This document shows, piece by piece, positions 10,557-28,655 of a stretch of DNA of 64,000 nucleotides. Source of the DNA: Spirochaetia bacterium (GTDB taxonomy: Bacteria; Spirochaetota; Spirochaetia; CADAEX01); assembly GCA_963662265.2 (NCBI GenBank), contig CAXXHA010000010.1, positions 64,001 through 128,000 of the forward strand, written 5' to 3'. Position 1 is the first letter of the stretch. The number at the start of each line of letters is the position of its first letter. The notes beneath the pieces were generated by a model that had not been told where the DNA came from, ran no database searches, and worked only from the letters and a program-made list of their open reading frames with translations. The position numbers and the translations under genes were made by a program.

Positions 10557-11069
10557 ATGAGCAATAACACTGAATTTGACACTGTTTTTAAAGTTAATCA
10601 GCATATTGTCTACCCTATTCAGGGTGTCGGAACCATTCAGTCGATCGAAAAAAAGATGTTCAAAAACAATGAGATACTCTACTACATAATTTATTTTGAA
10701 GTATCCGACATGACAGTTATGGTGCCTGTAGATAAGGCTGATTCAATAGGAATAAGACCTATTGTTTCGAAAAAAGAATCTGAAAAAGCTCTGGTTATAG
10801 TTGCAGCACCTGATGAGCCGCTTACAACAGACTGGAAAATGAGATATCAGATGAACCTGGATCTTCTCAAGAAAGGGGATATTACTGATATCGCTGTTGT
10901 AGTCAGATCACTCTACCACAGAAGCAAACAGAAAGAACTTCCGATTCTTGAAAGAAAATTGTTTGATAATGCTATCAAACTTCTAATTGATGAGATTTCC
11001 TATTCTCTCGACAAATCAAAGGATGAAAGTGAACAGCTGATTTTCAGCAAACTGGAAACTGATACATAA
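10557..11069 (+). CDS. carD: CarD family RNA-polymerase-binding regulator
   Basis: FKVNQHIVYPIQGVGTI, MTVMVPV...IGIRP, DWKMRY; start moved to 10557 because the upstream sequence is the promoter. Confidence 0.92.
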   Translation: MSNNTEFDTVFKVNQHIVYPIQGVGTIQSIEKKMFKNNEILYYIIYFEVSDMTVMVPVDKADSIGIRPIVSKKESEKALVIVAAPDEPLTTDWKMRYQMNLDLLKKGDITDIAVVVRSLYHRSKQKELPILERKLFDNAIKLLIDEISYSLDKSKDESEQLIFSKLETDT

Positions 11070-11752
11070 TGAAGCTTAAAGTTTTTGCGCTTATTACTGC
11101 TGCGGGAATAAGTAATAGAATGGGGGGTGTGAAAAAAGAATTTATTCTAATTAAAAAGCACCCCCTTTTGCAATATACAGCAAATCCTTTTGATAAATCT
11201 GGTTTAATCAATAAAATATTTATTACATATACACCCAATAATAAAGAAATGTTCAATGATATTATTCAGGAAGCAAACTTAAAAACTCAAATAGTATTTG
11301 TTGAAGGGGGAAGCTCCAGGCAGCAGTCTGTATACAATGGATTACTGGCAATGAAGGAAGAAAACCCGGATATAGTTTTGATTCATGACGGGTCCCGTCC
11401 TGCAATCAGTAAACATCTTATAAAAAGTGTATATGAATCAACCAGAAGTCATGGCGCTGCAGCCCCTGTAATACCAATAACAGATTCCCTGAAAAAGACT
11501 GATAAACACGGGTTTTTATCAGAACATCCGGACAGGGACGAGTTCAGGGCAATACAAACTCCACAGGGATTTTTATATAAAGATATACTTGAAGCACATA
11601 TCAAGGCTTCTACAGACGGAAGGGAATATCATGATGACACAGAAATTTACTCCCATTATATAGGAAAGGTTTCAACTGTTCCCGGCTGTAAAAAAAATAT
11701 CAAAATAACATACCGCGAAGATTTAATGTTTTTTTCAGGTGAAGAACAATGA
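11069..11752 (+). CDS. ispD: 2-C-methyl-D-erythritol 4-phosphate cytidylyltransferase
   Basis: AAGISNRMGG..K, GGSSRQQSV.NGL, VLIHDGSRP, IQTPQGF, NIKIT..EDL; TAATG coupling to carD. Confidence 0.95.
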   Translation: MKLKVFALITAAGISNRMGGVKKEFILIKKHPLLQYTANPFDKSGLINKIFITYTPNNKEMFNDIIQEANLKTQIVFVEGGSSRQQSVYNGLLAMKEENPDIVLIHDGSRPAISKHLIKSVYESTRSHGAAAPVIPITDSLKKTDKHGFLSEHPDRDEFRAIQTPQGFLYKDILEAHIKASTDGREYHDDTEIYSHYIGKVSTVPGCKKNIKITYREDLMFFSGEEQ

Positions 11753-12225
11753 TAAGAATTGGTCAGGGATATGATATTCACAAACTGGCAGAGAAGAGGG
11801 ATCTGATAATTGGAGGGGTTAAAATTGACTTCGAAAAAGGATCTGTGGCACATTCAGACGGAGATGTTTTAATACATGCAGTTATAGACTCCCTTCTTGG
11901 AGCTGTTGCAGAAAATGATATTGGAACACATTTCCCCCCTTCTGACAATAAATATAAAAATATATCCAGCAGGATTCTTCTCAGGAAAATATATTCAATA
12001 ATTAAAGAAAAAGGGTATAAAATATCAAACCTTGACACTTCTGTTATACTGGAAAAACCGAAACTCAGAAGCTATATAGATCTGATCAGAAAGAACCTTG
12101 CAGATGATCTTGAAACAGAAATAGGTAATATTTCAGTCAAGGCAAAAACAAAAGAACAATGCGATGCAGCAGGAAGAGGAGAAGCTATCGAAGCATTATC
12201 CTCGGTTCTTCTGATCAGAATCTGA
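11749..12225 (+). CDS. ispF: 2-C-methyl-D-erythritol 2,4-cyclodiphosphate synthase
   Basis: MIRIGQGYDIH, AHSDGDVLIHA..D.LLGA, DIGTHFP, SVKAKT.E; ATGA overlap with ispD. Confidence 0.96.
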   Translation: MIRIGQGYDIHKLAEKRDLIIGGVKIDFEKGSVAHSDGDVLIHAVIDSLLGAVAENDIGTHFPPSDNKYKNISSRILLRKIYSIIKEKGYKISNLDTSVILEKPKLRSYIDLIRKNLADDLETEIGNISVKAKTKEQCDAAGRGEAIEALSSVLLIRI

Positions 12226-12230
12226 TTTGT

Positions 12231-13592: not shown

Positions 13593-13635
13593 TTTGATAT
13601 CTCTTTGGAATATACTGTTTTATTAACAATTAAAG

Positions 13636-13668
13636 TCAGGTTACCCATCACATTGATGGGTAACCTGA
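13636..13668 (-). terminator. Perfect 15-bp stem-loop between the DXR-II-like gene and the AraM-like gene (terminator or RNA stabiliser)
   Basis: TCAGGTTACCCATCA-cat-TGATGGGTAACCTGA; only a weak U tail on the minus strand. Confidence 0.7.
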
Positions 13669-13675
13669 TATATAT

Positions 13676-14965
13676 TTAAAAAAATCTGTCCTGAAATTTT
13701 CTCATCTGATAAATAAGTGAATCAGTATCCAGATCCACCATGTCATAGGTAAGTATTTCACCTTTTTTGACATTTCTCTTCATTTTTGTTTTTTTGGTAA
13801 CCAGGCCAAGTGGAAGAGCATTTGATTTTTTCGCATTTACAGCGCTTTCAAAACTTCCATACACGGTATACCCCCCAATTCCATCAAGAGTCTGTCCCTC
13901 TGCCAAATCTGTTTTAGCAACAGTAATTGTTTCTGAAACCGGACCGCTTATAGGAACAATTGTTGACTGGTTATCCAGAACAGCCTTTACTGCTGAAAGA
14001 GGAGTTTCAAGACTGCAAAGATGATAAGGCCTGTATAAAACATAATTGGGACCATCGCCCATCTTGAGATAATTCATTTCATGATTAACAGAAGGTAGAT
14101 CGCTTCTTATAATAATGAAGACACCCGGGGCAACACCGTTTATATAGTCAACAACCCCGTAATTATTGAGAATACCCCCTTCTTCCTTAAGCATAAACAG
14201 ACCTGGAAGATCGCTTACCTGACCAGCAGCGCCGTGCGCGCCTCTTACATCAGGAACAAATCCTGTTGAATTTGACATGGCAGTCATCTCTACCATGGTT
14301 TTTGTGCCGTCTTTGAAAGATGTAAGCATTTTAGGACTTACACCTTTTCTTGTTGCTTCCTCATACACTGTTTCAGGGTTGCAGGAATAATCAAGCTTAT
14401 TATTTTTACCCTTCCCAATTACAAGAACCTCAAATCCGAGAGCATCTGCAAAATCATACATTTCTTTTACAGCCCCAGGTTCATCTCCCGCAGACCCGGT
14501 ATAAACAACACCGGCATTATCAGCCATCTTTTTAAGTATTGGACCGATGACTACATCAGTTTCAACATTGAGCATAACAATATGTTTTTTATTGTTTATT
14601 GAATCAATTGCAACTTTTGCTCCTACTTCAGGAACACCGGTTGCATCAATATTGACATCAATGGCATCAATCTGTGCCGCAAGCTCAGCATTGTCTGTTA
14701 CAAGGTATTTCCCTTTACCTATCCAGTCATTTGCTTCCGACACTGTATTAACTATTTTATAATCATCTTCAGACATCCCCGCATCTTTGTACGCCCTGAC
14801 TGCATTTTCAATGTTTATATCAGCGACAATTGCAGGCCTGATTCCTTTCATTGCAGACATCTGGCTTACCATGCCGTTTCCCATCTGCCCTGCTCCAATT
14901 ATACCAGCCATGATATGTTCATTTTTTTCTTCAAGTTTTAAAAGTTTTTTATTTATACCCAGCAT
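13676..14965 (-). CDS. COG4091 NAD(P)-dependent oxidoreductase with SAF domain; probable DXR-II/DRL (type II DXP reductoisomerase)
   Basis: GIIGAGQMG Rossmann motif; IDATGVPEVGA, H.VMLNVE.DV.IGP, AGDEP, GKGKNN, DGTKTMVEM, GVVDY, RPYHL.SLE.PL, and C-terminal SAF (VAK.DL..G..LDGIG; VKKGEILTY). These match the Brucella DRL motifs as I recall them. Confidence 0.75.
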   Translation of the reverse strand: MLGINKKLLKLEEKNEHIMAGIIGAGQMGNGMVSQMSAMKGIRPAIVADINIENAVRAYKDAGMSEDDYKIVNTVSEANDWIGKGKYLVTDNAELAAQIDAIDVNIDATGVPEVGAKVAIDSINNKKHIVMLNVETDVVIGPILKKMADNAGVVYTGSAGDEPGAVKEMYDFADALGFEVLVIGKGKNNKLDYSCNPETVYEEATRKGVSPKMLTSFKDGTKTMVEMTAMSNSTGFVPDVRGAHGAAGQVSDLPGLFMLKEEGGILNNYGVVDYINGVAPGVFIIIRSDLPSVNHEMNYLKMGDGPNYVLYRPYHLCSLETPLSAVKAVLDNQSTIVPISGPVSETITVAKTDLAEGQTLDGIGGYTVYGSFESAVNAKKSNALPLGLVTKKTKMKRNVKKGEILTYDMVDLDTDSLIYQMRKFQDRFF

Positions 14966-14987
14966 AACTGCTCCTTATAATTTTTTT

Positions 14988-15854
14988 TTACATCAATCCT
15001 GATGTAATCATTTTATCTACAAGTCTTGCGACTCCATCTTCGGTATTTTTTTCTGTTATATATTTAGCTATTTTTTTGACGTTTTCATTTCCATTTTCCA
15101 TAGCAACGCCGTATCCTGCCCATTTAATCATCTCAATATCATTGTCATAATCACCTACAACTACCACTTCATCAGGAGTAATATCCCGTTCACTGCATAT
15201 TTCTTCCAGCGCGGATTTTTTACTGATACCTGCAGCATTTATATCAAAGCGTCTTTTACCTGTCCGTGTAATTGTAAGTTCGGGCCATTCTGACATCTCG
15301 TCATGAAGTTTCTGAACCAGGTCTGTGTCATCATCAAGAACAGTTGCCTTGATAATTTCCGCAGTGCCGCTGCAGATAAAATCCCTGATATTACCAACTG
15401 CCCTTACCTGAATATGATTTGCCTGATTTCTGTAGTTCTCAAAAGTAAGTTCCAGATCAGGATTTATAACAACATTTTTCAATGGCCACATTCTGTTTTC
15501 TTCATTGAGTTCCTCTACATAAAGAATGTTATAGCCGTAAAACTGTACATATGAATTTTTACTGTTTATATAATCAGCAATTTTCAATGAAGTTTCAGTC
15601 TTTAAATAATTAATCTTAATTGATTCTCCTGTCACTGGATCAACAATTGCCCCGCCGTTTAACGCAACAAGCGGAGTCTTTATCCCGATGCATTTTGCAT
15701 GAAGCCACAGAGAAGCCGGGAATCTGCCGGAAGCCAGTGTCACATCTCTCTTTTTATATATCAATTTTTGCAAGCCGTTTTTCACAGGTTCTGTAAGGAC
15801 TCTATTCGCATCCAAAAGTGTATCGTCCATATCAAGAGCCAATAATTTGTACAT
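14988..15854 (-). CDS. Cof-type HAD-IIB phosphatase
   Basis: LLALDMDDTLL, LASGR, ALNGG, GISK, VGDYDNDIEM...AG.GVAMENG. Confidence 0.93.
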   Translation of the reverse strand: MYKLLALDMDDTLLDANRVLTEPVKNGLQKLIYKKRDVTLASGRFPASLWLHAKCIGIKTPLVALNGGAIVDPVTGESIKINYLKTETSLKIADYINSKNSYVQFYGYNILYVEELNEENRMWPLKNVVINPDLELTFENYRNQANHIQVRAVGNIRDFICSGTAEIIKATVLDDDTDLVQKLHDEMSEWPELTITRTGKRRFDINAAGISKKSALEEICSERDITPDEVVVVGDYDNDIEMIKWAGYGVAMENGNENVKKIAKYITEKNTEDGVARLVDKMITSGLM

Positions 15855-15905
15855 ATTTTTTTAATCCTTATTTACCAAGGTGTGTTTAAGTTCATTTTCA
15901 GTTTT

Positions 15906-16646
15906 TCAATCTACTGTATAAACAGATTTCATATGGGGCATAACAACTTCGCCTCCAAAGGAATCACAGGCATTTTTCTTTAACAACTCAATATCGCAAT
16001 CATGAGATATATGTGATAGGAGAAGTTTTTTAACTTTCCCCTTTCTTGCTATCAAACCCGCTTCATGAGCATTCATATGCCCTTCCCCGGTAGTGTGCCT
16101 GCTTTCCCTGGACACAGCAGCTCCGCAAATCAGAAAGTCTGCATTCATTGCAAAATCAGCAAGAGAATCCATATAAACAGTGTCTGTTATATAGACAATT
16201 ACTTTTCCGTTCTGTTCGATTCTTATGGCATAACAGGGAATAGTATGGTTAACAGGCATAAATGTTATGTTCATACCTGAAATATTTATATTTCTGTTTT
16301 TATCCATATCATATAACTCTGCATTCTTCCCCTGTATTGTTTTCCACACATCTTCAGGTTCTGAAGGTGAATATATCTGCAGTTTATCTTTCATTTTTCC
16401 GCTTCTTATTGCATAGTTTGCAGAATACTGAAGAATACTAACATCACACATGTGATCATAGTGAAGGTGAGTAAGCAGAACAGCTGATACGTTCTCAACA
16501 TTTGCGTAAAACGGGAACCTGCTCATCACACCGCTGCCGCAATCAAGAAGAACCTGCCCGGAGTCTCCAGTTATTAAATAACCTGAAGTTGCGCCTCCGG
16601 CAGAAGGAAATGTTCCCCAAAATCCCAATACATTGACTTTAAACAC
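15906..16646 (-). CDS. MBL-fold metallohydrolase (RNase Z/YhfI/PhnP-like phosphodiesterase)
   Basis: VLGFWGTFP...GATSGYL, LLDCGSG, THLHYDHMCD (HxHxDH), H.IPC, Y.TDT, GHM...EAG, LLLSH. Confidence 0.88.
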   Translation of the reverse strand: MFKVNVLGFWGTFPSAGGATSGYLITGDSGQVLLDCGSGVMSRFPFYANVENVSAVLLTHLHYDHMCDVSILQYSANYAIRSGKMKDKLQIYSPSEPEDVWKTIQGKNAELYDMDKNRNINISGMNITFMPVNHTIPCYAIRIEQNGKVIVYITDTVYMDSLADFAMNADFLICGAAVSRESRHTTGEGHMNAHEAGLIARKGKVKKLLLSHISHDCDIELLKKNACDSFGGEVVMPHMKSVYTVD

Positions 16647-16657
16647 ATTAACCTCAA

Positions 16658-17713
16658 TTATTTATCAAGCCATACAGCATCTTTTATTCTCATGCCGACT
16701 ACATCTCCGACATCAAAATTGTTAGAGACATCAGAAAGAACCCTGAGCATTTCATTTTCAACCGATATATAGTATTCAATCGAATGGCCAAGATAAAGTT
16801 TTCTCGAGATACATCCTTTGAGAGGAGAACCCTGATCAAAATCTATCTTGTTTGGCCTTACCGCCAGCAATCCCTTGTCTGATAGTCTTTCCCTCTTTTT
16901 TACAGAAACCATTTCGCCGTACATATTCACAGTCATTTCATCCTTTGAACTGTCACCGGCCCATTCACATGGGAGAGTATTTGCCGATCCGATGAATTTA
17001 GCTACAAATGAGTTAGCTGGTTCCTGATACAATTCCTGAGGACTTCCCATCTGAATAAGTTTTCCCTTTTTCATGACAATTACCTTGTCAGACATAGACA
17101 TTGCTTCAACCTGGTCGTGTGTTACATTTATAATTGTAACTTTCATCCTCTTCTGAATTTCCTTAATCTCACTTCTCATCTGCTCTCTTAAGGCTGCATC
17201 AAGATTGGAAAGGGGTTCATCAAGCAGAAGTATTTTAGGATCCATGACAAGGGCCCTTGCAAGGGCAACTCTCTGCTGCTGACCGCCTGAAAGTTCATGA
17301 GGATATCTTGATGAAAACGGAAGAAGATCTACTATTTTCAGGACCTCTTCTGTCTTCTGCTTAATGATATTCTTATCCTCTTTCCTGATTTTTAGCGGAT
17401 ATGCAACGTTATTGAAGACGTTCATATGCGGCCAGACAGCATATGTCTGAAAAACCATTCCAATTTCTCTCTTTTCCGGCTGTAAAAAAGTGTTGTTGCT
17501 TTTATTAACAACTTCTCTTCCGTCAATCGAAATAACCCCTTCTTCCGGGACTATGAATCCGGCAATCATTCTTAATGTAGTTGTTTTTCCACAGCCGGAA
17601 GGCCCGACAATAGTTGCCAGTTCATTTTCATTTATTTCAATATTAACGTTATCAACTACTGTTATATTCCCCTGATAACGTTTTGTAAGATTTTTTATCT
17701 CAAGTTTGCCCAT
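16658..17713 (-). CDS. ABC transporter ATP-binding protein (FbpC/AfuC/PotA family)
   Basis: GPSGCGKTT, GMVFQTYAVWPHM, LSGGQQQRVALARA, LLLDEPLSNLD, VTHDQ.EA; TOBE C-terminus. Confidence 0.95.
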   Translation of the reverse strand: MGKLEIKNLTKRYQGNITVVDNVNIEINENELATIVGPSGCGKTTTLRMIAGFIVPEEGVISIDGREVVNKSNNTFLQPEKREIGMVFQTYAVWPHMNVFNNVAYPLKIRKEDKNIIKQKTEEVLKIVDLLPFSSRYPHELSGGQQQRVALARALVMDPKILLLDEPLSNLDAALREQMRSEIKEIQKRMKVTIINVTHDQVEAMSMSDKVIVMKKGKLIQMGSPQELYQEPANSFVAKFIGSANTLPCEWAGDSSKDEMTVNMYGEMVSVKKRERLSDKGLLAVRPNKIDFDQGSPLKGCISRKLYLGHSIEYYISVENEMLRVLSDVSNNFDVGDVVGMRIKDAVWLDK

Positions 17714-17757
17714 ATTCTTCTCCTTTCCAGATAATCATTTACCGTGTATTTTTAGCC

Positions 17758-19491: not shown

Positions 19492-19542
19492 TAAAAATAT
19501 CCTTTTATTATCAATACGATATAACAAAAATATGTTTTAAAA

Positions 19543-19612: not shown

Positions 19613-20638
19613 TTATTTCATTTCAAAAATGTTGGAAAACTCTTCACGAAGGTATGATCTGTTTTCGCTCAGATATACAAGATCAAGGTCCAGAAGTTTA
19701 ATTTCATCAAGTGCAGGAGCTCCTTCCGGTACGCCTACACTGTTTTTCACAGGTATATAACCCTGGGCAACAAACATTTTCTGGCATTCCTCTGACAAAA
19801 GGAAATCAATGACTTTTTTAGCAGAGTCCTGAACTTTTGATGTTGAAATAATACCTACAGGAGTAGGGATCAGAGCCGCACCTTCTGAAGGCCATACAGA
19901 TTTAACAGGTGATCCTTCATTTTCAGCATTTCTTGCCATAAAATCGACAACAGAAATTGCCCAGTATTCTCCGCTTGAAACCTTGCTTGTAAGCTTTCCG
20001 TTGGAGAGTTCAAATTTACATTCATTGCCTTTAAGAGATTTGTAATAATCCCAACCCAGTCCCTGGTTATCAACAAGCTGTGAAAGTGTCAGAAATGCTG
20101 CTCCTGAGTAGTTTGGATTGGCAATTGCAGCCTTGCTTTTCAGATTTGAATTGTATAAATCATGCCATGAAACAAGAGGATCTGAAACTTTTAAAGTATT
20201 ATATGCAAGTACATTAAAAATCTGTCTTACTTCATAAAATTTCCCATCATTATATTTATAACGGGGATCAAGATCCTTAGCTTCAGGTGAATCATATTTC
20301 ACAAGAAGATTTTTTGAATCAAGCTTTGAAAAATAATCAACATCAGCAAACCAGATAAGGTCTGCCTGAGTTTCCCCGGTTTCAAGCTCTGCTTCTATCT
20401 TTGAGACAACTGCACCAGTTCCTGATCTGAAAATATTAACAGTAATATCAGGATTGCTCTTTGAAAAAACATTCATCATCTCATTTACCTTGTCCTGAGA
20501 CTCAGAAGTATAAAGATTGACAACAGTTGGTTCCGCAGAATCTGTTGATTTTTCCTCGCTGCTTCCCGCTGCTGACAGATTAATCACAGGCATCATGATT
20601 AGCACAGCAAACAAGCAAACTACAGTCACACGTTTCAT
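19613..20638 (-). CDS. ABC substrate-binding protein (AfuA/FbpA-like; phosphorylated-solute or iron class)
   Basis: Spirochaete-style signal (LSAAG), VNLYTS, FRSGTG.V..K..AE, SW.DL, IANP.YSG, WPSEGA..IP.P.GI, AK..IDFLLS. Confidence 0.88.
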   Translation of the reverse strand: MKRVTVVCLFAVLIMMPVINLSAAGSSEEKSTDSAEPTVVNLYTSESQDKVNEMMNVFSKSNPDITVNIFRSGTGAVVSKIEAELETGETQADLIWFADVDYFSKLDSKNLLVKYDSPEAKDLDPRYKYNDGKFYEVRQIFNVLAYNTLKVSDPLVSWHDLYNSNLKSKAAIANPNYSGAAFLTLSQLVDNQGLGWDYYKSLKGNECKFELSNGKLTSKVSSGEYWAISVVDFMARNAENEGSPVKSVWPSEGAALIPTPVGIISTSKVQDSAKKVIDFLLSEECQKMFVAQGYIPVKNSVGVPEGAPALDEIKLLDLDLVYLSENRSYLREEFSNIFEMK

Positions 20639-20695: not shown

Positions 20696-21640
20696 TCAGG
20701 AATCAATTTCCATTATTTTTTCAACAGTTTCATCATCACTGATCAAAGTGTTGAACCATTCACCTTTTATCCCGGCAAGAATTGAACCGGCTTTTTCTTC
20801 TCCCCGCCCGACAGCAATTGCAGCAGGGATCTTTTTTATTTCTTCATGAGGAAGAGCAATAACCCTTTTATTAAGCGGGATATCAAGAATTCTTCCCTCT
20901 GAATCAAATTGCCATCCAAGGATGTCACCTTCAATTTTTTTATCTTCATTGTTTTTCAAATCTACAAATCCCCCTTCAACAAGGCTGGATTTTTCATTTC
21001 TGATAGTCCCTACACCGAATACAGCCATATCAAGATTGCTGCAGATATCAAAAACTTCTCGTATTGCTTTTTCATTAAAAAAGGATTCCCTTACTTCTTC
21101 ACTTCCCACAATCAGGGGTGCAGGACAATATACATAGGAACCGCCTATCTTTTCGGCCAGCTTCCTTACAAGATCTACTCCGTCATATTTGGGATCTTTA
21201 AGCGGTATATAGCCAGACATCTGCACAACTGTACTGTTTTCTAGAACAGTTTCCTGCATTATTGAAAACGCCCGGTAGAGAGTTCTTGATCTACCTATTC
21301 CGATATTTATTCCTGTTTTCAGATATGTAGTAATACACTGCGCTGCCAGATTCCCAAGCATTTTTTCTTTCAAGTCATGATGAACCATGTTTTTTGTATT
21401 AAGCAGATATACATCTTTAAGCTTATATCTGTCCTTAAATTCCCGTTCAAGCTGCCAGTTTCTCTTAAGTGCATAATTTACCCGAACATCAATAAGACCA
21501 ATATTCCTGCTTGTATCAAGCATCCGAGAAACCATTGATCTTGATTTCCCTATCATCTTTGCTATCTGGTCCTGATTCAAACCTTCTTCAAAATATAAAA
21601 CTGCTACCTGAGCCAGCAGATCCAGTCTTTCCTCTTCCAT
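20696..21640 (-). CDS. SorC/DeoR-family sugar-phosphate-binding regulator #1 (start moved to 21640)
   Basis: VAVLYFEEGLNQDQIA...GKSRSMVSRML HTH; IGIG.SRTL, PAPLIV, AVFGVG, FDSEG, K...I.A...G...N.LISD; GAGGGG SD before ATG 21640. Confidence 0.92.
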   Translation of the reverse strand: MEEERLDLLAQVAVLYFEEGLNQDQIAKMIGKSRSMVSRMLDTSRNIGLIDVRVNYALKRNWQLEREFKDRYKLKDVYLLNTKNMVHHDLKEKMLGNLAAQCITTYLKTGINIGIGRSRTLYRAFSIMQETVLENSTVVQMSGYIPLKDPKYDGVDLVRKLAEKIGGSYVYCPAPLIVGSEEVRESFFNEKAIREVFDICSNLDMAVFGVGTIRNEKSSLVEGGFVDLKNNEDKKIEGDILGWQFDSEGRILDIPLNKRVIALPHEEIKKIPAAIAVGRGEEKAGSILAGIKGEWFNTLISDDETVEKIMEIDS

Positions 21641-21655
21641 TTGCGCGCCCCTCGC

Positions 21656-21691
21656 ATTCACTATTGTGAATCTCAATTCATATATGTGAAT
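21656..21691. promoter_or_regulatory. Tandem palindromic operator, likely bound by SorC #1
   Basis: ATTCACTATTGTGAAT (21656-71) and ATTCATATATGTGAAT (21676-91), 20 bp centre to centre, lying between the promoter and the RBS. Confidence 0.75.
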
Positions 21692-21693
21692 TC

Positions 21694-21722
21694 ATGCTAA
21701 CGCATAATATTTCTGCTGTCAA
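21694..21722 (-). promoter_or_regulatory. Sigma70 promoter of the sorC#1-ABC-MBL-HAD-DXR-II operon
   Basis: Minus strand TTGACA(21722-17)-17 bp-TAGCAT(21699-94). Confidence 0.7.
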
Positions 21723-21942
21723 GTTTTTTTATTAAAATAAAAAGATTAGTTTTTCAGAATCAAGACAGTATTTTTAGAGTTTTTTTAATAGGTATAAAAA
21801 TCATTGAGACTTAAAAGACAGGTAGTTTAGTAAAAGTTTTTATATAATGAGGAGGTAATTCTATATTTTATAACAGCTTTATAAGCTTTATGGGAATCTC
21901 TGAAACCCGTTTTTGCCAGACTGAAAATTCCCCTGCAGCAGA

Positions 21943-22965
21943 TTAGTTGAAATTATCATTTACTACTGCAGTTAAAATATCACTCATACATGGGACCCAA
22001 TCAGAATTGGAATCACAAACAGATTCAACAACAGCCTCAATCGAACTTCTTTCAAAAGGAACACCTTTGATTTTCTTTACAAATTTATTGATCATTTCGG
22101 GATACAGACAGTCTGTAAATATAACAGCATCAAGTACTTCAGCATTCTTCACATCAAGATTAATTTCCACGGTACCCCATTCAAACCATTTTTCAAGCCT
22201 GTAATTAAAATCAGGACTTTTTTTATACACCCATTCCCAGCTTTTCATCAGCTCATAATAATCAATTAACCTGGGGGTTCTCTTTAAAACATTCAAATCA
22301 AGTATTTCTTTTTCACCAGAACCCCGGTATTCAAAAAATGTTTCAGTAATAACTCTTTCAAGAACTTCTGTATCGATTTCATTATTGTATTCATTAAGAT
22401 TCGCAACACGTGATTTGACAGATTTTATACCTTTTGATTCAAGCTTCTTCCTGTCGGGATTCAAATACATTGATAGCCGCTCAAGGTCAACATCAACAAG
22501 TAATGTTCCATGATGAAACGCCCTGTCTTTTGTCAATTTAAAAGCAGAACCAGAAATCTTTCTGCCTTCAACAAGAATATCATTCCTCCCCGAGACTTCC
22601 GCTTTGATTCCCAGTTTGGAAAGTGCCTGGATTATTATTTCAAAATTTCTCTCTTTGCTGTAATTGTCAACACCTGACATAAATGTGAAATTAAGATTTT
22701 TTCTGTCATGATAAACAGCGCCTCCCCCGCTCTGTCTGCGGGCAAGCTTAACATTATCTTTTTCCATAATTTCAAGCCTGCACTCTTTCCAGGGATTCTG
22801 ATAACGCCCTATTACAACAGTATCTGAATTCCTCCAGAGGTAGAGATAGTGCTTTTCAGGAGCAATATCATTAAATATCCAGTTTTCGATAGCAAGATTA
22901 AACCACGGGTTTTCTGTACCCGAATAAAATACTTTAGTTTCGATTTGTTTTTTTTCAGCTTCCAT
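21943..22965 (-). CDS. lplA: Lipoate-protein ligase A (start moved to 22965)
   Basis: NPWFNLA.E, LWRN.DTVVIGR.QNPW.EC, RRQSGGGAVYHD, GRND, RKISGSA, HHGTLL, KGIKSV.SRVANL. Confidence 0.95.
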   Translation of the reverse strand: MEAEKKQIETKVFYSGTENPWFNLAIENWIFNDIAPEKHYLYLWRNSDTVVIGRYQNPWKECRLEIMEKDNVKLARRQSGGGAVYHDRKNLNFTFMSGVDNYSKERNFEIIIQALSKLGIKAEVSGRNDILVEGRKISGSAFKLTKDRAFHHGTLLVDVDLERLSMYLNPDRKKLESKGIKSVKSRVANLNEYNNEIDTEVLERVITETFFEYRGSGEKEILDLNVLKRTPRLIDYYELMKSWEWVYKKSPDFNYRLEKWFEWGTVEINLDVKNAEVLDAVIFTDCLYPEMINKFVKKIKGVPFERSSIEAVVESVCDSNSDWVPCMSDILTAVVNDNFN

Positions 22966-22984
22966 AATTTTCAGTTCATATAAT

Positions 22985-23929
22985 TCAATCAAGTGAATTG
23001 AGTATCTTGAGCGCAGCAACTTCATCGGTTATTAATATATTTATCAATTCACCTTTAATAGCGGCATGAATAGCCGGTGCTTTATCCTTGCCGCAGGCTA
23101 CACCTATTCTCACAGGTATTTTTTTATAGTCGTCCATGCTTACACCAATAATCCGTTTATTGACAGATATATCAAGAATATTTCCCTCTTCATCAAAATG
23201 ATAACCGCAGATATGTCCCCTGGCTCCCTGCTCATATATCTCCCGTGCTTCTTCCGTAGACAGGTACCCGGCACGTACCAGAGCACTGCGCTCAGGGATA
23301 TCTGACGAAAGTCCAACAATAGCAATATCAAGCGAGGTTGTTTTTTTCACAGTATCCCTGACAGCAGGTTCTTCCATAAGCATATTTTTAAGCTCCTCTG
23401 TCTTCACCATAACAGGGGCATAGAGAGGATAATATTTCCCATTCAAACGGCGGGCAAGCGCCTGTGCCAATTCAGGACCATCATATGAAGGATCTCTGGC
23501 CCCAAGCCCTCCCATTAGCTGAACAACCTCTGCATCAACAATTTCAGATCTCTTCATCTGATTAACCATTTGATACAGTGTTGTTCCCCAGGATATACCT
23601 ATGCAAATTCGGTCCCTCAACATTGACGACAACACCGAAACAGCCTTCGCGCCTGCCTTGGCCATTGTCGTAGTAGAATCAGAGTCTGAGCGGGTCACAA
23701 AAACCTTATCAAGAGAAAACAGGTTTGCAAGCTTTTCCCCGAGAGCTGTTGAAAAATATGATTCATCCTGAATCCTTATTTCCACAATCCCCTCCTCCCT
23801 GCACTGTTTCAGCATAAGTGATACAGTCGGCCGGGAAATACTGAATTCTCTTGCTATTTCCTGTTGAGACAGCCCATCTATATAGTATCTCCGGGCAATA
23901 TCTATCAGATAATTTCGGTCCTTTTGCAT
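22985..23929 (-). CDS. SorC/DeoR-family regulator #2
   Basis: IARRYYIDGLSQQEIA..FSISRPTVS.ML HTH; IGISWGTTL, VVQLMGG, YAP, K..AI.AAIKG.LIN.LITDE. Confidence 0.93.
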   Translation of the reverse strand: MQKDRNYLIDIARRYYIDGLSQQEIAREFSISRPTVSLMLKQCREEGIVEIRIQDESYFSTALGEKLANLFSLDKVFVTRSDSDSTTTMAKAGAKAVSVLSSMLRDRICIGISWGTTLYQMVNQMKRSEIVDAEVVQLMGGLGARDPSYDGPELAQALARRLNGKYYPLYAPVMVKTEELKNMLMEEPAVRDTVKKTTSLDIAIVGLSSDIPERSALVRAGYLSTEEAREIYEQGARGHICGYHFDEEGNILDISVNKRIIGVSMDDYKKIPVRIGVACGKDKAPAIHAAIKGELINILITDEVAALKILNSLD

Positions 23930-23991
23930 ATATAATCCCTGTGAATATTTGGTATAATATTAACCTATAATAAAAACTATTCACTTACAAG

Positions 23992-25383
23992 TTATTTCTT
24001 ACCAGGAGGAAGATGTAGACAGCACCCGAGTGAATCTGCAGCAGCCTCCATAAGCGCTTCTGAAACTGTCGGATGGGCATGAACAATACCTGCCAGTTCA
24101 TTTACTGTTATCTCCATACTCATAAGAGAAGCAGCCTCATTAATTATCTCAGATGCTCCATCTCCCACAATATGAACCCCGAGTATTTCACCATAAACAG
24201 GATCGGAAATTATTTTTACAAAACCTTCACCAGCTCCCGATGCCAATGCTTTTCCATTGGCAGATAATGGGAAAAATCCAACAGAATATTTCCCCCCGGC
24301 AGCAGCTTCATCTTCTGTCAAACCAATCCCGGCAGCTTCAGGACTTGTATAAACAACAGAAGGCACATAACTGAGCGAAGAATCATCTTCAACGCGACCT
24401 TTCAATGCATGTTCTGCGGCAAACTCTCCCATCTTGAAAGCTGCATGAGCCAGCATTTTTCTGCCATTTATATCACCTGGAGCATAAACCCCCTTAATGC
24501 TGGTCTCCATATGATCATTGACAACAATCTTTCCTTTCTCAACAAGGATAGGCTGATCACCTGCGCATGAAAGATCAGCTTTTCTGCCGACAGAGAGCAG
24601 GATATTTTCATATTCCTTTTCTGTTTTATCATTAAATACAGCGCTAAGCCCCGAACCGGTCTCTTTCACTGCATCAACACTTCGTGAAGTCGCTATTCCA
24701 ATCCCGTGCTTTTCAAGCGAAGCCTTAATATGTTTCGATATATCCCGGTCCATAAAAGGAAGTATCCTGTCTCCCAGTTCAACTATATCGACATGGCATC
24801 CGAATGATGAAAATATCAGAGCCATTTCAACACCAATCACCCCGCCGCCTACAATAAGGAGTGATTCCGGAACATTATCAAGGTCAAGTATTTCATTGCT
24901 TGTTAATACCCGGCTGCTTTCAAATCCCGGAATATTCAGCCTTACAGCCTGGGAACCTCCCGCAAGGATGACAGACTTCCCTTCAATAATATCATTATTA
25001 TCGATAACAACCTTTCCATCACCTGCAAGTACCCCTGTACCCTTGAACAAAGCCACCTGGTTACTCTTGAGAAGCATTTCTACTCCGCTTGTGAGTTTTT
25101 TAACTATCTTATTTTTTTCTTTTACAGCTTTTTTCATATCAACAGAGACTTTTTTGCTTTCAAGGACTATCCCTCTTGCATCAGCCTTGCCAAGCTGGTT
25201 GATAATTTCAGCACTTTTCAGAAATGTCTTTGTGGGGATACACCCCCGGTTAAGACATGTCCCCCCCACAACATCTTTTTCCACAAGGGCAACTTTTCCC
25301 CCAATCCTGGCAGCTTTGATTGCGGAAATATATCCCGCAGGCCCGCCGCCAATTACTACAACATCGAACTTGTTTTTTTCCAC
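23992..25383 (-). CDS. lpdA: Dihydrolipoyl dehydrogenase, E3 (probable GTG start 25383)
   Basis: IGGGPAGY, GGTCLNRGCIPTK redox disulfide, GGGVIGVE, MLAHAA, HAHPTVSE. Confidence 0.95.
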   Translation of the reverse strand: MEKNKFDVVVIGGGPAGYISAIKAARIGGKVALVEKDVVGGTCLNRGCIPTKTFLKSAEIINQLGKADARGIVLESKKVSVDMKKAVKEKNKIVKKLTSGVEMLLKSNQVALFKGTGVLAGDGKVVIDNNDIIEGKSVILAGGSQAVRLNIPGFESSRVLTSNEILDLDNVPESLLIVGGGVIGVEMALIFSSFGCHVDIVELGDRILPFMDRDISKHIKASLEKHGIGIATSRSVDAVKETGSGLSAVFNDKTEKEYENILLSVGRKADLSCAGDQPILVEKGKIVVNDHMETSIKGVYAPGDINGRKMLAHAAFKMGEFAAEHALKGRVEDDSSLSYVPSVVYTSPEAAGIGLTEDEAAAGGKYSVGFFPLSANGKALASGAGEGFVKIISDPVYGEILGVHIVGDGASEIINEAASLMSMEITVNELAGIVHAHPTVSEALMEAAADSLGCCLHLPPGKK

Positions 25384-25397
25384 ACTGCTACCTCTTC

Positions 25398-26690
25398 TCA
25401 CAACATCATAAGAGGCAGTTCGAGATAGTCTTTTAAATGTTTCATAAAGACTGCCGCCTCTGCACCGTCAACAATTCTGTGATCATAAGTCAGACACAGC
25501 TGCATGACTTTTCGGCTTTCAACTTCACCATTTTCTTTAAGCTTAAGTGAGTCCTCTATCGCACAAACACCAAGTATTCCTGCTTCAGGAGGGTTAATTA
25601 TCGGGGTGAAAGATGTAATTCCAAACATACCCAAATTGGAAACTGTAAAGCTGCCGCCGCTCATTTCATCAGGAGACAATTTTCCATCTCTCCCTTTCCC
25701 GGCAATGTTTTTTGCACAGGCAGACAGTTCTGTAAGAGAATACTTTTCCGCTTCTCTGATTACAGGGACAACAAGCCCTCTTTCTGTAGCAACTGCCACG
25801 CCGAGATTTACACTGTCCTTCAATATCAGTTCTGTATTATTAAAAACAGAATTCAGCTTGGGATATTTTTTCAATGCCTTTACAACAGCAAAAAGAATGA
25901 AATCATTAACAGAAAGCTTCATATTCAGCCGCCTGTTCAATTCACTTCTTGCTGTCAGCAGATCTGTTAAATCAGCCTTTATATTCTGTGTAACCGGGGG
26001 AATAGTCAGATGGCTCTCAAGCATACGCTTCCCGGTTATTTTCTGTATTCCGGTCAGAGGCATATGTGAATTAAATTCATCTGAAACCTTTTCAAGGCTG
26101 TTGCCCCTGCTTCCTGTATCAAGGTCTCTTGCAAATATTTTCCCGGAATATCCGCTTCCGCTAATATCCCCGGGTGATATATTATTAGCTTCCATTATTT
26201 TTTTGGCTAAAGGTGTAGACTTCAGAGAAACAGCAGTAACATCCTTTTTCAGTATTTCACCCCATTTACCTGTTCCTTCTATATTATTAAGCTCTATTCC
26301 TTTTTCTTCTGCCGCCTTACGGGCTGCCGGTGTTGCCTTTATCCTGCAAGTTTTATCAGTCATCCTGCTTTCAGAAGAGATCACCTTTTTTACAGGCTCT
26401 TCATTCTTTTCCTCATCAGCTGCATCATCACTTTTTTCCGGTATTTTTTCCCCGGCTTCTCCAATCCAGGCAATTACTTCTGTTACCGGGACAACAGCTC
26501 CTTCATCAGAAAGTATTTTCAGAATTGTCCCGTCATAATCAGCCTCTAATTCCATTACAGACTTATCAGTCTCAATCTCAGCAACTGCTTCGCCCTTATC
26601 AACAGTATCTCCTTCATTTTTCAGCCACTTGATAAGAGTTCCCTCTTCCATAGCCATACCTGTCTTGGGCATAATAATAGGTTTTGCCAT
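25398..26690 (-). CDS. Dihydrolipoamide acyltransferase, E2 (AcoC/PdhC-like)
   Basis: Lipoyl domain ETDKS, two subunit-binding repeats (ATPAARK, STPLAKK), catalytic DHRIVDGA. Confidence 0.95.
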   Translation of the reverse strand: MAKPIIMPKTGMAMEEGTLIKWLKNEGDTVDKGEAVAEIETDKSVMELEADYDGTILKILSDEGAVVPVTEVIAWIGEAGEKIPEKSDDAADEEKNEEPVKKVISSESRMTDKTCRIKATPAARKAAEEKGIELNNIEGTGKWGEILKKDVTAVSLKSTPLAKKIMEANNISPGDISGSGYSGKIFARDLDTGSRGNSLEKVSDEFNSHMPLTGIQKITGKRMLESHLTIPPVTQNIKADLTDLLTARSELNRRLNMKLSVNDFILFAVVKALKKYPKLNSVFNNTELILKDSVNLGVAVATERGLVVPVIREAEKYSLTELSACAKNIAGKGRDGKLSPDEMSGGSFTVSNLGMFGITSFTPIINPPEAGILGVCAIEDSLKLKENGEVESRKVMQLCLTYDHRIVDGAEAAVFMKHLKDYLELPLMML

Positions 26691-26704
26691 TATTCCTGTA
26701 TCTC

Positions 26705-27685
26705 CTATAATATACTGTTGATTTCTTCTTTGATTTTATCCTCTGTGGGAACAACCTGGGCTTCCAGATTGGGGTTGTAGGGAATAGGAACGTCCAGCCC
26801 CCCCAGCCTTTTCACAGGAGCATCCAGATAAAAAAATGCATCGCTTTCCGCAACAACACTGGCAAGTTCCGCTCCATACCCGCATGTCTGGCAAGCTTCA
26901 TAGACAACAAGGACTTTACCTGTTTTTTTCACAGACTCAATTATTGCTTCCTTATCAAGAGGAACAAGCGTTCTGATATCTATAACCTCAATTTCAGTGC
27001 CATTTGCAGCAAACTCTTCAGCAATTGAAAGACATCTGGGAACCATCCGTCCATAAGTTACTATAGTAAGGTCTGAACCAGCTCTCTTCACATCCGCCTT
27101 TCCAAGCGGTACTACATAATCATCATCCTCTTCTGGAACCTCCCCCTTTGTCCTGTACAACAGCTTCTGTTCGAGAAACACTACAGGATTATTGTCTCGG
27201 ATTGCTGATTTAAGAAGTCCTTTTGCGTCATAAGGAGTAGAGGGGATTACAACTTTAAGTCCCGGAACATGAGAAACCCAGGCTTCAAGACTCTGGCTGT
27301 GCTGCTCGGCTGCCCCTGTACCGGATCCTCCCGGAGCCCTGAGAACCATGGGAACAGCGCCCTGACCTCCAAACTGGAACCTGTTTTTTGCTGCCTGGTT
27401 TGCAAGCTGTTCAAGAGCCAGCGTAATAAAATCGCTGAACATGATCTCGACAATTGGTCTCATTCCAGTCATTGCAGCTCCTGCCGCGCAACCTGTTATT
27501 GCAAGTTCGGATATAGGTGTATCAATAATTCTTTCATCGCCGAATTCCTCGAACATTCCTCTGGAAACACCGAATGCTCCCCCGTAAATCCCTACATCTT
27601 CCCCCATAAGAACAATATTATTATCTTTTCTCATTTCTTCGCTCATTGCTTCGTTTACAGCCTGAGCATATGTTATCTCTCTCAT
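26705..27685 (-). CDS. TPP-dependent dehydrogenase E1 beta (AcoB/PdhB-like)
   Basis: [42 protein letters not shown]. Confidence 0.95.
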
Positions 27686-27695
27686 CTATATCTCC

Positions 27696-28655
27696 TTAAT
27701 CTGCAAAAACATCATCAAAAATATTTTCTATTTTTGGCTCAGGACTTTTTTCTGCATACTCGACAGCATCTTCAACATCTTTTGCAGCTTTCTTATCAAG
27801 CTCATCCAGTTCCTTATCAGTCAGAATTTTCCCGGAAACAAGATATTTCCTGTACCGTTTTATCGGACATTTCTTCTTCCATTCATTAACTTCTTCTTTT
27901 GTTCTGTAAAGCTGGGAATCACTTTTTGAATGCCCCATCCAGCGGTAAGTATTGAGAACCATCAGCATCGGTCCGTTTTCAAGAACATATTCCCGGCCTT
28001 TCTTTGTTTCTTCATATATAGTCATGATATCGTTTCCATCAAGGGAAACACCTTTCATCCCATAGGAAGAAGCCCTTACAGCTATATCCTTTATATTCAT
28101 TGATTTTGAAATGCTGGTCGACATTCCATAATAGTTATTTGTACATACAAAAATCACAGGCAATTTCCAGACTGATGCCAGATTCAGTGATTCATGAAAA
28201 GCCCCTTCATTGGTTGCTCCGTCGCCGAAAAAAGAAACTGTAATATTTTTTGTTTTTCGATACTTCTGTGAAAAAGCAGATCCTGTAGCTATCGGGATTC
28301 CCCCTCCGACTACTCCGTTGGCGCCAAGAGATCCTACAGAGAAATCAGCAATATGCATGCATCCCCCTTTCCCTTTGCAGTAGCCAGTTTCCTTTCCAAG
28401 AAATTCCGCCATCATCCTTTTGATATCCATCCCCTTTCCAATTCCCTGATTATGTCCTCTGTGGGTCTGAGTTATCAAATCTTCTTTTTCAAGAGCTGAA
28501 CACACTCCTACACCGGTTGCTTCCTCTCCTATGCAAAAATGAGCAGTCCCATGTACTTTGCCCTGAACAAATAAACGGGCAGCTGTTTCCTCAAATTCCC
28601 TGGTCTGCATCATTTTTAAATATAATTCTTTATGTTTTTCAACAGGAAGATCCAT
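27696..28655 (-). CDS. TPP-dependent dehydrogenase E1 alpha (AcoA-like)
   Basis: HGTAHFCIGEEA, THRGH, GKGGCMH, TPP motif GDGATNEG.FHESLN...W.LP..F...NN, TYRWMGHSKSD; AGGAG SD. Confidence 0.93.
   Translation of the reverse strand: MDLPVEKHKELYLKMMQTREFEETAARLFVQGKVHGTAHFCIGEEATGVGVCSALEKEDLITQTHRGHNQGIGKGMDIKRMMAEFLGKETGYCKGKGGCMHIADFSVGSLGANGVVGGGIPIATGSAFSQKYRKTKNITVSFFGDGATNEGAFHESLNLASVWKLPVIFVCTNNYYGMSTSISKSMNIKDIAVRASSYGMKGVSLDGNDIMTIYEETKKGREYVLENGPMLMVLNTYRWMGHSKSDSQLYRTKEEVNEWKKKCPIKRYRKYLVSGKILTDKELDELDKKAAKDVEDAVEYAEKSPEPKIENIFDDVFAD

Follow-up and report, generated by a model that had tools for sequence, protein, structure and literature searches.

Eleven tested members of the oxidoreductase clade DXR-II complemented a dxr mutant, and the four sister-clade members reported with them did not (PMC3847144). 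As set out in that study, the clade presents a puzzle, since it is scattered, redundant with DXR-I in Firmicutes that have both, and present in two species with no other gene of the MEP (2-C-methyl-D-erythritol 4-phosphate) pathway (PMC3847144); a 2026 review describes a distribution with no defining pattern except over-representation in certain pathogens (PMC13001223). Here we describe a DXR-II gene from a Spirochaetia bacterium, found in a 64,000-nucleotide stretch of contig CAXXHA010000010.1 (the window, to which positions refer unless another contig or locus is named). It lies in an island of 14 genes that also encodes an ABC importer, two SorC-type regulators, and an acetoin-dehydrogenase-type complex and that converges on ispF. 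To our knowledge, the sole activity known for the DXR-II clade is the interconversion of DXP (1-deoxy-D-xylulose 5-phosphate) and MEP. Like acetoin, DXP is a methyl acyloin.

DXR-II is robustly associated with an acetoin-type complex, a SorC regulator, a glucitol-type phosphotransferase system (PTS) or an ABC importer, and ispD/ispF. The association is best read as a catabolic route in which an imported compound would be brought to MEP, DXR-II would run in reverse to give DXP, and the thiamine pyrophosphate (TPP)- and lipoyl-dependent complex would cleave DXP to acetyl-CoA and glyceraldehyde 3-phosphate (GAP). We give this tentative reading a probability of roughly 45%. No description of such a route was found in searches of the literature on DXR-II, methylerythritol catabolism or use, deoxyxylulose breakdown with acetoin dehydrogenase, or the sorbitol PTS and acetoin dehydrogenase of Acetobacterium.

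The oxidoreductase matches the Brucella DRL structures 3UPY/3UPL over its full length (1.8e-102; residues 2 to 427 aligned to 8 to 434). In DXR-II, K191, K193, and T229 anchor fosmidomycin and substrate, E174, F178, R320, and Y322 line the dimer cavity or interface, and G121, T229, H250, and V351 tell the clade from its sisters DLO1 and DLO2, which are inactive (PMC3847144). Read from the 3UPY/3UPL alignment, the window protein has the same residue at all 10 named positions; among 84 aligned homologues, nine of these positions are each conserved in 78 to 84 sequences and V351 in 63. Judged by these residues, the protein is a member of the DXR-II clade, beyond the COG4091 oxidoreductase that the initial annotation had listed. 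Among database matches, the family carries labels such as "NAD(P)H-dependent oxidoreductase" or "homoserine dehydrogenase-like," with no family name.

DXR-II is not needed for biosynthesis in this genome, because a canonical dxr (above the TIGR00243 cutoff) and two dxs genes (C9:9212-10873 and C14:63202-65040, both above the TIGR00204 cutoff) are present and DRL was not found in either of two same-genus genomes. A second DXR-II, 59.6% identical to that of the window, is encoded on contig C1 in an operon of the order SorC-GutM-IIC-IIBC(split)-IIA(glucitol type)-HPr-DRL-EI.

The complex has the complete acetoin-dehydrogenase-type gene set (E1α, E1β, lipoyl-E2, and E3) with its TPP, lipoyl, acyltransferase, and disulfide motifs, including the DKS lipoyl-lysine site at residue 42 and DHRIVDG (DHRxxDG) at residue 403 of E2. 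It falls short of the pyruvate dehydrogenase (PDH) equivalogs for E1α (TIGR03182, 362.5 with a cutoff of 393.85; TIGR03181, 252 with a cutoff of 411), the best NCBIfam model for E2 scores 333 with a cutoff of 445, and E1β passes a PDH subfamily model only (NF006667). The open reading frame (ORF) list of the block holds no sigma-54 activator of the AcoR type, and the regulator of the complex is of the SorC type. We therefore do not class the complex as Aco and propose only that it works like Aco. A Clostridioides difficile aco-like operon with a DeoR-type regulator is reported to allow no growth on acetoin (bioRxiv 10.1101/2023.07.28.551048), which would fit cleavage of DXP by complexes of this kind.

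In a FastTree phylogeny of 36 E1α sequences, in which those of DRL-linked loci were joined by others of the phylum, from genomes with PDH-like and other E1α proteins, the window E1α falls within a 19-member clade with a support of 1.0. The clade comprises the window, all 14 clostridial DRL-linked E1α sequences in the tree, the spirochaete genomes G421 and G031, and two further members from genomes with a PTS-DRL operon elsewhere; the PDH-like sequences and many paralogues of one spirochaete family lie outside it. Since the sampling was driven by DRL loci, the tree shows the clade to be coherent and does not show it to be exclusive. G031 encodes an E1α 79% identical to that of the window, and its E2, E3, and SorC2 genes come next as they do in the window, with the SorC2 orthologue (49% identical) after E3. 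The same genome has four DRL-family paralogues (L007, L013, L014, and L015) that are 36 to 45% identical to the window protein. Across 401 genomes of the phylum, E1α (E ≤ 1e-60) was found in 115, of which 75 belong to one family grouping with PDH-like sequences in the tree, and DRL (E ≤ 1e-80) was found in 23. Without the genome of the window, 18 of 22 DRL-positive genomes are also E1α positive.

The survey of other DXR-II loci began from a scan of one genome per species, which gave 279 DRL relatives; the best 80 were kept (L030 to L109, 57 to 74% identical), and flanks of up to 10 kb were annotated by BLASTP against the window proteins and reference proteins of two other loci. Two of the 80 have no clean DRL ORF in the ORF filter and still count in the denominators. 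Near DRL we found a glucitol-type PTS in 59/80 loci, a SorC-type regulator in 52/80, an acetoin-type E1 in 15/80, a Cof-like haloacid dehalogenase (HAD; 25 to 33% identical to that of the window) in 13/80, a BLAST match to IspD or IspF in 9/80 (2 doubtful), CarD in 7/80, an AraM-like protein in 6/80, and LplA in 1/80 (L067, where it ends the operon). The recurrence of DXR-II with AcoABCL-like complexes, SorC, and a glucitol-type PTS, about which the initial annotation had asked, is thus borne out.

In the E1-bearing loci the typical order is SorC-GutM-IIC-IIBC-IIA-DRL-(Cof)-E1α-E1β-E2-E3-(EI)-HPr. The complex usually lies within the PTS operon, directly after DRL and before HPr/EI, and so one enzyme past the transporter. 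SorC2-like genes precede E1α in L050, L053, and L086, and a pair of NagD-type HAD and AraM-like genes follows DXR-II in 5 loci. L086, in which PTS, HAD, AraM-like, DRL, SorC, E1α, E1β, E2, and E3 genes stand together, is the closest parallel to the window, transporter type aside. That a DXR-II unit and an E1 unit would co-occur elsewhere, as the initial annotation required, is seen in the spirochaete genome G421, where the two are divergently adjacent (EI<HPr<DRL<PTS<GutM<SorC<SorC2 against E1α>E1β>E2).

Two features of the complexes at related loci were also noted. The E3 proteins of L037, L067, and L086 have 576 to 586 residues, some 110 more than that of the window, and the added length may represent a lipoyl domain at the N terminus. 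Directly upstream of the PTS-DRL-E1 operon of Acetobacterium carbinolicum (L045) lie genes for a second E1β (56% identical) and an E2-like protein (28% identical), so that two distinct complexes of the acetoin type seem to be encoded next to each other in this genome.

At least 9 of the 80 DRL loci stand beside or inside a CarD-ispD-ispF cluster, and adding the window brings the arrangements to four, spread over at least two phyla. The block lies between ispD and ispF (CarD-PIN-IspD-[block]-IspF-ProRS) in two species of Geosporobacter, in Anaerosolibacter, in Maledivibacter, and in one metagenome-assembled genome (MAG) (L030, L031, L032, L056, and L052). It lies one gene upstream of CarD-PIN-IspDF in an Anaerovoracaceae MAG (L037, beyond the flank and seen after its extension). 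In three termite-gut spirochaete MAGs, IspF<IspD<CarD is divergent from SorC>PTS>DRL (L064 and L072; L055 with CarD only), and in the window the island is convergent with ispF. The IspD matches of L036 and L062 are doubtful, being far from IspF and CarD, and were not relied on. The initial annotation had allowed that the adjacency to ispDF might be coincidence. This reservation can be lifted, since chance would account poorly for the four arrangements, although an insertion hot spot is conceivable. In L030 (17394 to 17759), L031, L056, and L037/L146 (2284 to 2649), the last gene of the PTS-DRL-E1 block, ahead of IspF or the next gene, is a conserved small ORF of 110 to 121 residues that matches no Pfam family.

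The 14 genes occupy 12231 to 28655 on the minus strand (Table 1), with five base pairs (12226 to 12230) between the stop codon of ispF and that of the AraM-like gene, in agreement with the gene order, common orientation, and gap first described. Families were assigned with Pfam and NCBIfam profiles. Suboperon A encodes E1α, E1β, E2, E3, SorC2, and LplA; after a gap of 266 bp, suboperon B encodes SorC1, a solute-binding protein (SBP), a fused double permease, an ATPase, a metallo-β-lactamase (MBL)-fold hydrolase, a Cof-type HAD, the DRL_cat oxidoreductase, and a protein resembling glycerol-1-phosphate dehydrogenase (G1PDH). A motif check found the catalytic or cofactor motifs of the MBL, HAD, DRL, E1α, E2, and E3 proteins unbroken. 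CarD-IspD-IspF, on which the island converges, is a housekeeping cluster.

Table 1. Features of the DXR-II island and its borders in the window
Feature	Position	Strand	Basis
Upstream region of E1 operon, 413 bp, promoter-like hexamers	28656..29068	-	intergenic
E1α, TPP-dependent acetoin/pyruvate-dehydrogenase-type complex	27696..28655	-	PF00676 (E1_dh) 3e-86; GDG...NN at residues 144-174
E1β	26705..27685	-	Transket_pyr + Transketolase_C; NF006667 390 bits (cutoff 321)
E2 dihydrolipoyl acyltransferase	25398..26690	-	PF00364 lipoyl, PF02817 E3-binding, PF00198 catalytic
E3 dihydrolipoyl dehydrogenase	23992..25401	-	TIGR01350 495.7 bits (cutoff 408.8); CLNRGC (CxxxxC) redox disulfide
SorC2, SorC/DeoR(Bacillus)-type phosphosugar regulator, within E1 operon	22985..23929	-	PF04198 3.5e-67
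LplA lipoate-protein ligase	21943..23025	-	TIGR00545 357 bits (cutoff 280)
Promoter region of transporter-DXR-II operon	21677..21942	-	palindromic operator-like site 21677-21690
SorC1, SorC-type regulator	20696..21676	-	PF04198 2.5e-51
SBP, AfuA/PhnS organophosphate-binding class, predicted secreted	19613..20638	-	SBP_bac_6
ABC permease, fused two-domain	17758..19527	-	two BPD_transp_1 stretches; PhnU2 model 165 bits, below cutoff
ABC ATPase with TOBE domain	16658..17713	-	PF00005 + PF08402
MBL-fold phosphodiesterase-like hydrolase (1ZKP/6KNS class)	15906..16646	-	Lactamase_B_2; HLHYDH (HxHxDH)
Cof-type HAD-IIB phosphatase	14988..15854	-	TIGR00099 168 bits (cutoff 137); DxD
DXR-II (DRL) clade oxidoreductase	13676..14965	-	PF21135 (DRL_cat) 2.7e-68
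Perfect hairpin, 15-16 bp, between DXR-II stop and AraM-like start	13635..13669	-	stem (7 G-C pairs) closing a loop of 3
AraM-like (G1PDH-like) enzyme, 453 residues, ~150 extra C-terminal residues	12231..13592	-	Fe-ADH_2
CarD	10497-11069	+	PF02559/PF21095
IspD	11069-11752	+	TIGR00453 189 bits (cutoff 181)
IspF	11749-12225	+	TIGR00151 196 bits (cutoff 116)

By BLASTN, the same-genus genome G001, the one aligned for synteny, is collinear with the window up to 12197 and again from 29090 onward, with 35 bp between; it has the CarD-IspD-IspF cluster without the island. The block from 12198 to 29089 (16.9 kb) is thus missing as a unit, and its absence as a single indel marks it as an accessory island whose genes are not grouped by chance. 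The ORF list shows no integrase or tRNA at the island borders in the window. E1α was not found in either same-genus genome, where only weak matches to other TPP enzymes appeared (E values of 2.5e-7 and 7.5e-8), and in the genome of the window E1α, LplA, and the MBL hydrolase are the only copies. It follows that the complex is no housekeeping PDH, and with LplA the island carries its own lipoylation enzyme. Beside the island (29069 to 32086) is a gene for a 1005-residue dCache-GAF-HD/HD-GYP signaling protein, which in G001 lies directly next to ispF (88% DNA identity). IspD and IspF are encoded by separate genes overlapping by 4 bp in the window (11069 to 12225) and by one fused frame in G001 (L026, 6778 to 7953); the fused IspDF has 391 residues by ORF call in G001 (408 codons of open frame) and 420 in the Anaerovoracaceae MAG.

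Both SorC proteins have an N-terminal helix-turn-helix and a Sugar-bind domain (PF04198) and score below the DeoR and LsrR equivalog cutoffs; this architecture places them in the SorC/DeoR(Bacillus)/LsrR/CggR phosphosugar family. SorC1 shares 47.8% identity with the SorC protein encoded in the PTS-DXR-II operon of C1, and the promoters of suboperon B and of that operon share a TTGACA -35 box and a palindrome of the TTCAyATATGTGAA type. With at most one mismatch allowed, the palindrome occurs at four sites in the 3.77-Mb genome; two fall in these DXR-II promoters and two within ORFs, so no promoter site of a wider regulon was found at that threshold. Given the similarity of the regulators and the rarity of the shared site, the ABC and PTS loci probably share their phosphorylated effector or respond to similar ones. 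A 10-of-14 look-alike of the palindrome before the E1α ribosome-binding site was seen by eye only and was not relied on. Upstream of the E1 operon there is a weak promoter-like site (TTGACA-16-TAATAT, 28720 to 28693). Promoter-like sites in the region number 64 (55.9 ± 7.7 in shuffled sequence) and terminator-like sites number 17 (13.1 ± 3.7), neither above expectation, and no Rfam family matched at an E value of ≤1 between 10000 and 30000. The hairpin between the DXR-II and AraM-like genes, with its weak T-tail, may be an attenuator, an mRNA stabilizer, or an operator or other protein-binding palindrome.

The closest solved structures to the SBP are AfuA (4R72, 4.8e-16), a pyridoxal phosphate (PLP) binder (6WCE), and a 2-aminoethylphosphonate (AEP) binder (4R6Y), and a hydrophobic stretch at its N terminus was read by eye as a signal peptide. 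The importer falls below the PhnS2T2U2 equivalog cutoffs in NCBIfam (138 versus 392.75, 165 versus 593, and 335 versus 458). On these similarities it is predicted to be an organophosphate ABC importer of the AfuA/PhnS class; the expected AfuA-like nature of the SBP is upheld, its nearest solved relatives binding organophosphates and not iron. Eight of the 400 other phylum genomes scanned encode SBP homologues of 38 to 43% identity, with permease and ATPase genes as the only neighbors in the five loci examined. The MBL hydrolase matches 1ZKP (9.2e-42) and 6KNS (2.5e-40), scores 129 bits against the cyclic-nucleotide phosphodiesterase model NF041851 (cutoff 400), and is accordingly placed, by its closest structures, among putative MBL-fold phosphodiesterases of the 1ZKP/6KNS class; the metagenome scan returned one distant relative, at 22% identity.

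The AraM-like enzyme reaches 192 bits against the G1PDH model NF002022 (cutoff 413) and matches the structure 9H4X (4.1e-39) over residues 7 to 306 of 453 only, so that neither an equivalog score nor a full-length match to G1PDH (AraM/EgsA) was obtained. The genome also has a paralogous operon (C1:148770-155353, L134) for a DeoR regulator of the DeoRC type, a fused permease, an ATPase, an SBP_bac_6 SBP, and an AraM-like protein of 492 residues. It hints that the AraM-like enzyme acts on an imported polyol phosphate such as glycerol 1-phosphate, and possibly represents organophosphate import followed by a G1PDH-like enzyme in a glycerol-1-phosphate route.

In the proposed route, the island would suffice by itself for the breakdown and salvage of phosphorylated 2-C-methyl-D-erythritol compounds. 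The ABC importer would take up an organophosphate, either MEP or a precursor such as 2-C-methyl-D-erythritol 2,4-cyclodiphosphate (MEcPP, also written MEcDP); because it comes with neither PTS nor kinase and its SBP is nearest to organophosphate binders, the imported compound should already carry phosphate. MEP is the simplest candidate and MEcPP the bolder one. Import of MEcPP would give the MBL phosphodiesterase and the Cof phosphatase a task, trimming to MEP where needed, and this is the weakest step. DXR-II, whose family is known to act in the forward direction, would then work backwards (MEP + NADP+ to DXP), and the E1-E2-E3 complex, lipoylated by LplA, would cleave the acyloin DXP to acetyl-CoA, GAP, and NADH. 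As acetyl-CoA and GAP are both central metabolites, no further enzyme would be needed. Part of the MEP could pass straight to the adjacent IspD and IspF, and the operon would stand at ispD/ispF because MEP is also the substrate of IspD. The two SorC regulators would sense phosphorylated intermediates, and cleavage of DXP would explain why a SorC-type regulator takes the place of AcoR on the complex. The AraM-like enzyme might, as a guess, reduce dihydroxyacetone phosphate (DHAP) or oxidize a polyol phosphate for redox balance. The second DXR-II, in its glucitol-type PTS operon, would feed the same route from free methylerythritol, which the PTS would deliver as the phosphate. Such a route would also explain DXR-II in organisms that have DXR-I or lack the MEP pathway.

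The sorbitol PTS of Salmonella is said, in the title of a 2004 report by Testa, to transport methylerythritol, and according to a 1986 title of Yokota and Sasajima, pyruvate and acetoin dehydrogenases reportedly form 1-deoxyketoses, that is, in the synthetic direction. The Listeria DXR-II gene presumably lies beside lmo0542-0544, three genes annotated as sorbitol PTS subunits. MEcDP is exported by plants and bacteria, is stable, and resists alkaline phosphatase; plants accumulate methylerythritol and its glucosides, and the same source states that the enzymes that open and dephosphorylate MEcDP are unknown (PMC11192765).

Several observations weigh against reverse DXR-II action followed by DXP cleavage. 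E1β exceeds a PDH subfamily cutoff and E1α is nearest to PDH models, which makes pyruvate compatible with the sequence as a substrate. Sixteen of the 22 other DRL-positive genomes of the phylum belong to one family, so the co-occurrence figure overstates independence. The reaction of DXR favors MEP. Within the flanks, 65 of the 80 loci have no E1. Most PTS-DRL loci show no downstream module, and as they stand they lack nothing that a sorbitol-like route, or salvage alone, would need. In six loci (L036, L033, L034, L089, L090, and L097), DRL is followed by a class II fructose-bisphosphate aldolase-type protein (~283 residues), a triosephosphate isomerase (TIM)-like protein (~230 residues; divergent, at 69 bits to PF00121), and UPF0047 (~173 residues), with no E1 complex, and in two others it is followed by transketolase and phosphofructokinase (PFK); one locus also has RpiB. 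E1α was not found at an E value of ≤1e-40 in two of the aldolase-type genomes, which implies that the aldolase module replaces the complex. These modules suit a hexose, pentose, or tetrose phosphate more naturally than DXP; conversion of DXP through 5-deoxypentulose 1-phosphate to DHAP and acetaldehyde in the aldolase-type loci would be pure speculation. The ABC-MBL front end is found in none of the 80 DRL loci (window-type SBP, 0; window-type MBL, 0), and in none of the five examined loci of the nearest SBP homologues is there an MBL, Cof, or DRL gene alongside. The import of MEcPP by an ABC-MBL-Cof front end recurring with DXR-II, as put forward in the initial annotation, is therefore left without a parallel and is possible but unsupported. 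The same scheme did not account for the AraM-like dehydrogenase, which is unexplained here as well. Finally, at a locus of G009 (L025, C1:472000-491900) genes for an FGGY kinase, a sugar SBP, an ABC ATPase, a permease, a short-chain dehydrogenase (SDR), TIM, a DRL-like protein, and E1α and E1β are followed by those for a free lipoyl protein (80 residues), an E2 catalytic domain (212 residues), a sigma-54 response regulator, and a kinase. The DRL-like protein deviates at 6 of the 10 diagnostic residues (K193D, R320E, and four others) and the E1α lies outside the clade; the locus counts as support at the family level only and probably encodes a related pathway that acts on another substrate.

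The glucitol-type PTS with GutM in 59/80 loci, most of which need no further enzyme, would also suit ordinary polyol-phosphate catabolism, in which DXR-II would replace SrlD as a sugar-alcohol-phosphate dehydrogenase (sorbitol 6-phosphate, pentitol 5-phosphate, or erythritol 4-phosphate to fructose 6-phosphate, pentulose 5-phosphate, or erythrose 4-phosphate) and E1-E2-E3 would be a traveling pyruvate or acetoin dehydrogenase. The aldolase, TIM-like, RpiB, transketolase, and PFK neighbors fit sugar-phosphate products, and the best scores of the E1 subunits are to PDH models. We consider this explanation unlikely, though a serious one. Tested clade members carry out the DXP-to-MEP rearrangement and sister clades do not (PMC3847144), and the diagnostic residues are kept; a characterized clostridial sorbitol operon, as described, has an annotated sorbitol-6-phosphate dehydrogenase and a LicR regulator (PMC7702098). 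The complex forms its own clade and lies within the PTS operon, flanked by DRL and HPr/EI. Polyol catabolism also leaves the recurrent ispD/ispF link unexplained, and the window importer has no kinase, so that its substrate must already bear phosphate. That the complex merely handles pyruvate made by the PTS was rejected, since the window and G009 tie it to ABC importers. Improbable, in our judgment, is the scavenging of phosphodiesters or cyclic phosphates (glycerophosphodiesters, fragments of teichoic acids or lipid head groups, or cyclic glycerophosphate), in which the ABC system would import the ester, MBL and HAD would open and trim it, the AraM-like enzyme would convert glycerol 1-phosphate to DHAP, DRL would oxidize a second polyol phosphate, and the E1 operon would be separate. 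The resemblance of the MBL hydrolase to phosphodiesterases, the match of the AraM-like protein to G1PDH at 4.1e-39, the strong hairpin that parts its gene from DRL, and the five-gene paralogous operon on C1, which suggests that importer and AraM-like enzyme work as a pair alone, speak for it. Yet one indel accounts for the entire block, SorC1 and its operator have their match at the PTS-DRL locus, the G1PDH score is under half its cutoff, and L086 joins HAD, AraM-like, DRL, SorC, and E1-E3 genes with a PTS, from which the AraM-like enzyme belongs with the DRL system rather than with the ABC importer.

We give very little credence to the view that two or three unrelated operons were joined by chance in one island, with the ispDF adjacency coincidental. 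The ABC-MBL part is unique among the 80 DRL loci, the SBP loci, and the metagenome scan, and the 266-bp gap between the suboperons has its own promoter-like site; chance is nevertheless already disfavored by the surveys, given the DRL-E1 linkage in 15/80 loci and G421, the E1 clade support of 1.0, the four arrangements at ispD/ispF, and the absence of the block from G001 as one indel. Hardly any probability attaches to another compound of the 1-deoxypentulose 5-phosphate type, such as 1-deoxy-D-xylulose or phosphorylated autoinducer 2 (AI-2), P-DPD, that DRL would interconvert with DXP and the complex would then convert into acetyl-CoA plus triose phosphate, an outcome that LsrG/LsrF reach by different chemistry. 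P-DPD is one oxidation step away from DXP, the output logic (acetyl-CoA and triose phosphate) is the same, and the LsrR model is the second-best match of both SorC proteins (1e-40 to 1e-47, below the cutoff). The general Pfam scan, however, brought no LsrK, LsrG, or LsrF homologue in the block to notice, the sole known reaction of DRL is DXP to MEP, and uptake of AI-2 by a glucitol-type PTS is not known.

The proposed MEP-to-DXP-to-acetyl-CoA route can be widened. DXR-II that stands beside DXR-I, or in organisms with no MEP pathway, would be mostly catabolic; methylerythritol or its phosphates, taken up by PTS or ABC systems, would be converted to DXP, a dedicated, lipoamide-dependent "DXP dehydrogenase" would yield acetyl-CoA and GAP, and the MBL and HAD enzymes of the window would scavenge exported MEcPP. 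We regard this joint reading as possible, with the balance somewhat against it. If true, it would give MEP-pathway intermediates their first catabolic route, adding a catabolic and salvage branch to the pathway and a new substrate class to the 2-oxoacid-dehydrogenase-type complexes. Consumers would be identified for the methylerythritol and MEcDP released by plants and bacteria, the annotation "acetoin dehydrogenase" would be reassigned in many anaerobes, and the enzymes would be of interest for isoprenoid engineering. The linkage of DXR-II to transporters, to a clade of complexes, and often to ispD/ispF offers a concrete, testable physiological role for a clade whose distribution has been puzzling.

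In Bacillus subtilis, AraL is a HAD phosphatase and AraM is a glycerol-1-phosphate dehydrogenase, and the island likewise pairs a HAD phosphatase with a G1PDH-like gene as in one sugar operon; it differs in the ~150 extra C-terminal residues of the AraM-like enzyme and in its G1PDH score of 192 versus 413. The importer shares its SBP class, PhnU2-like fused permease, and TOBE-domain ATPase with AfuABC, PhnS2T2U2, and the P5PA PLP binder, and is only distantly similar to them (4.8e-16 to AfuA; NCBIfam scores well below the cutoffs). The second DXR-II and 59/80 relatives stand in IIC-IIBC-IIA-GutM operons like the glucitol/sorbitol PTS operon (srlAEB-gutM-srlD), whereas the window island has an ABC importer in place of the PTS, DXR-II in place of the SDR-type sorbitol-6-phosphate dehydrogenase, and a SorC-type regulator. 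In comparison with DXR-II of Brucella abortus (3UPL/3UPY), which is described as the biosynthetic DXR of the MEP pathway (PMC3847144), the window protein has a full-length match and all of the named residues; here, DXR-I makes the enzyme redundant, the genome encodes it twice and in transporter operons, and its proposed direction is catabolic. The C. difficile operon with no growth on acetoin is similar in design to that of the window complex. With AcoABCL and heterotetrameric PDH the complex shares the order E1α-E1β-E2-E3 and intact cofactor motifs, and the chemistry proposed for it is like that of AcoABCL, the oxidative cleavage of a methyl acyloin to acetyl-CoA and an aldehyde. Its differences are a clade of its own tied to genomes with DXR-II, a SorC-type regulator, and DXP as the proposed substrate.

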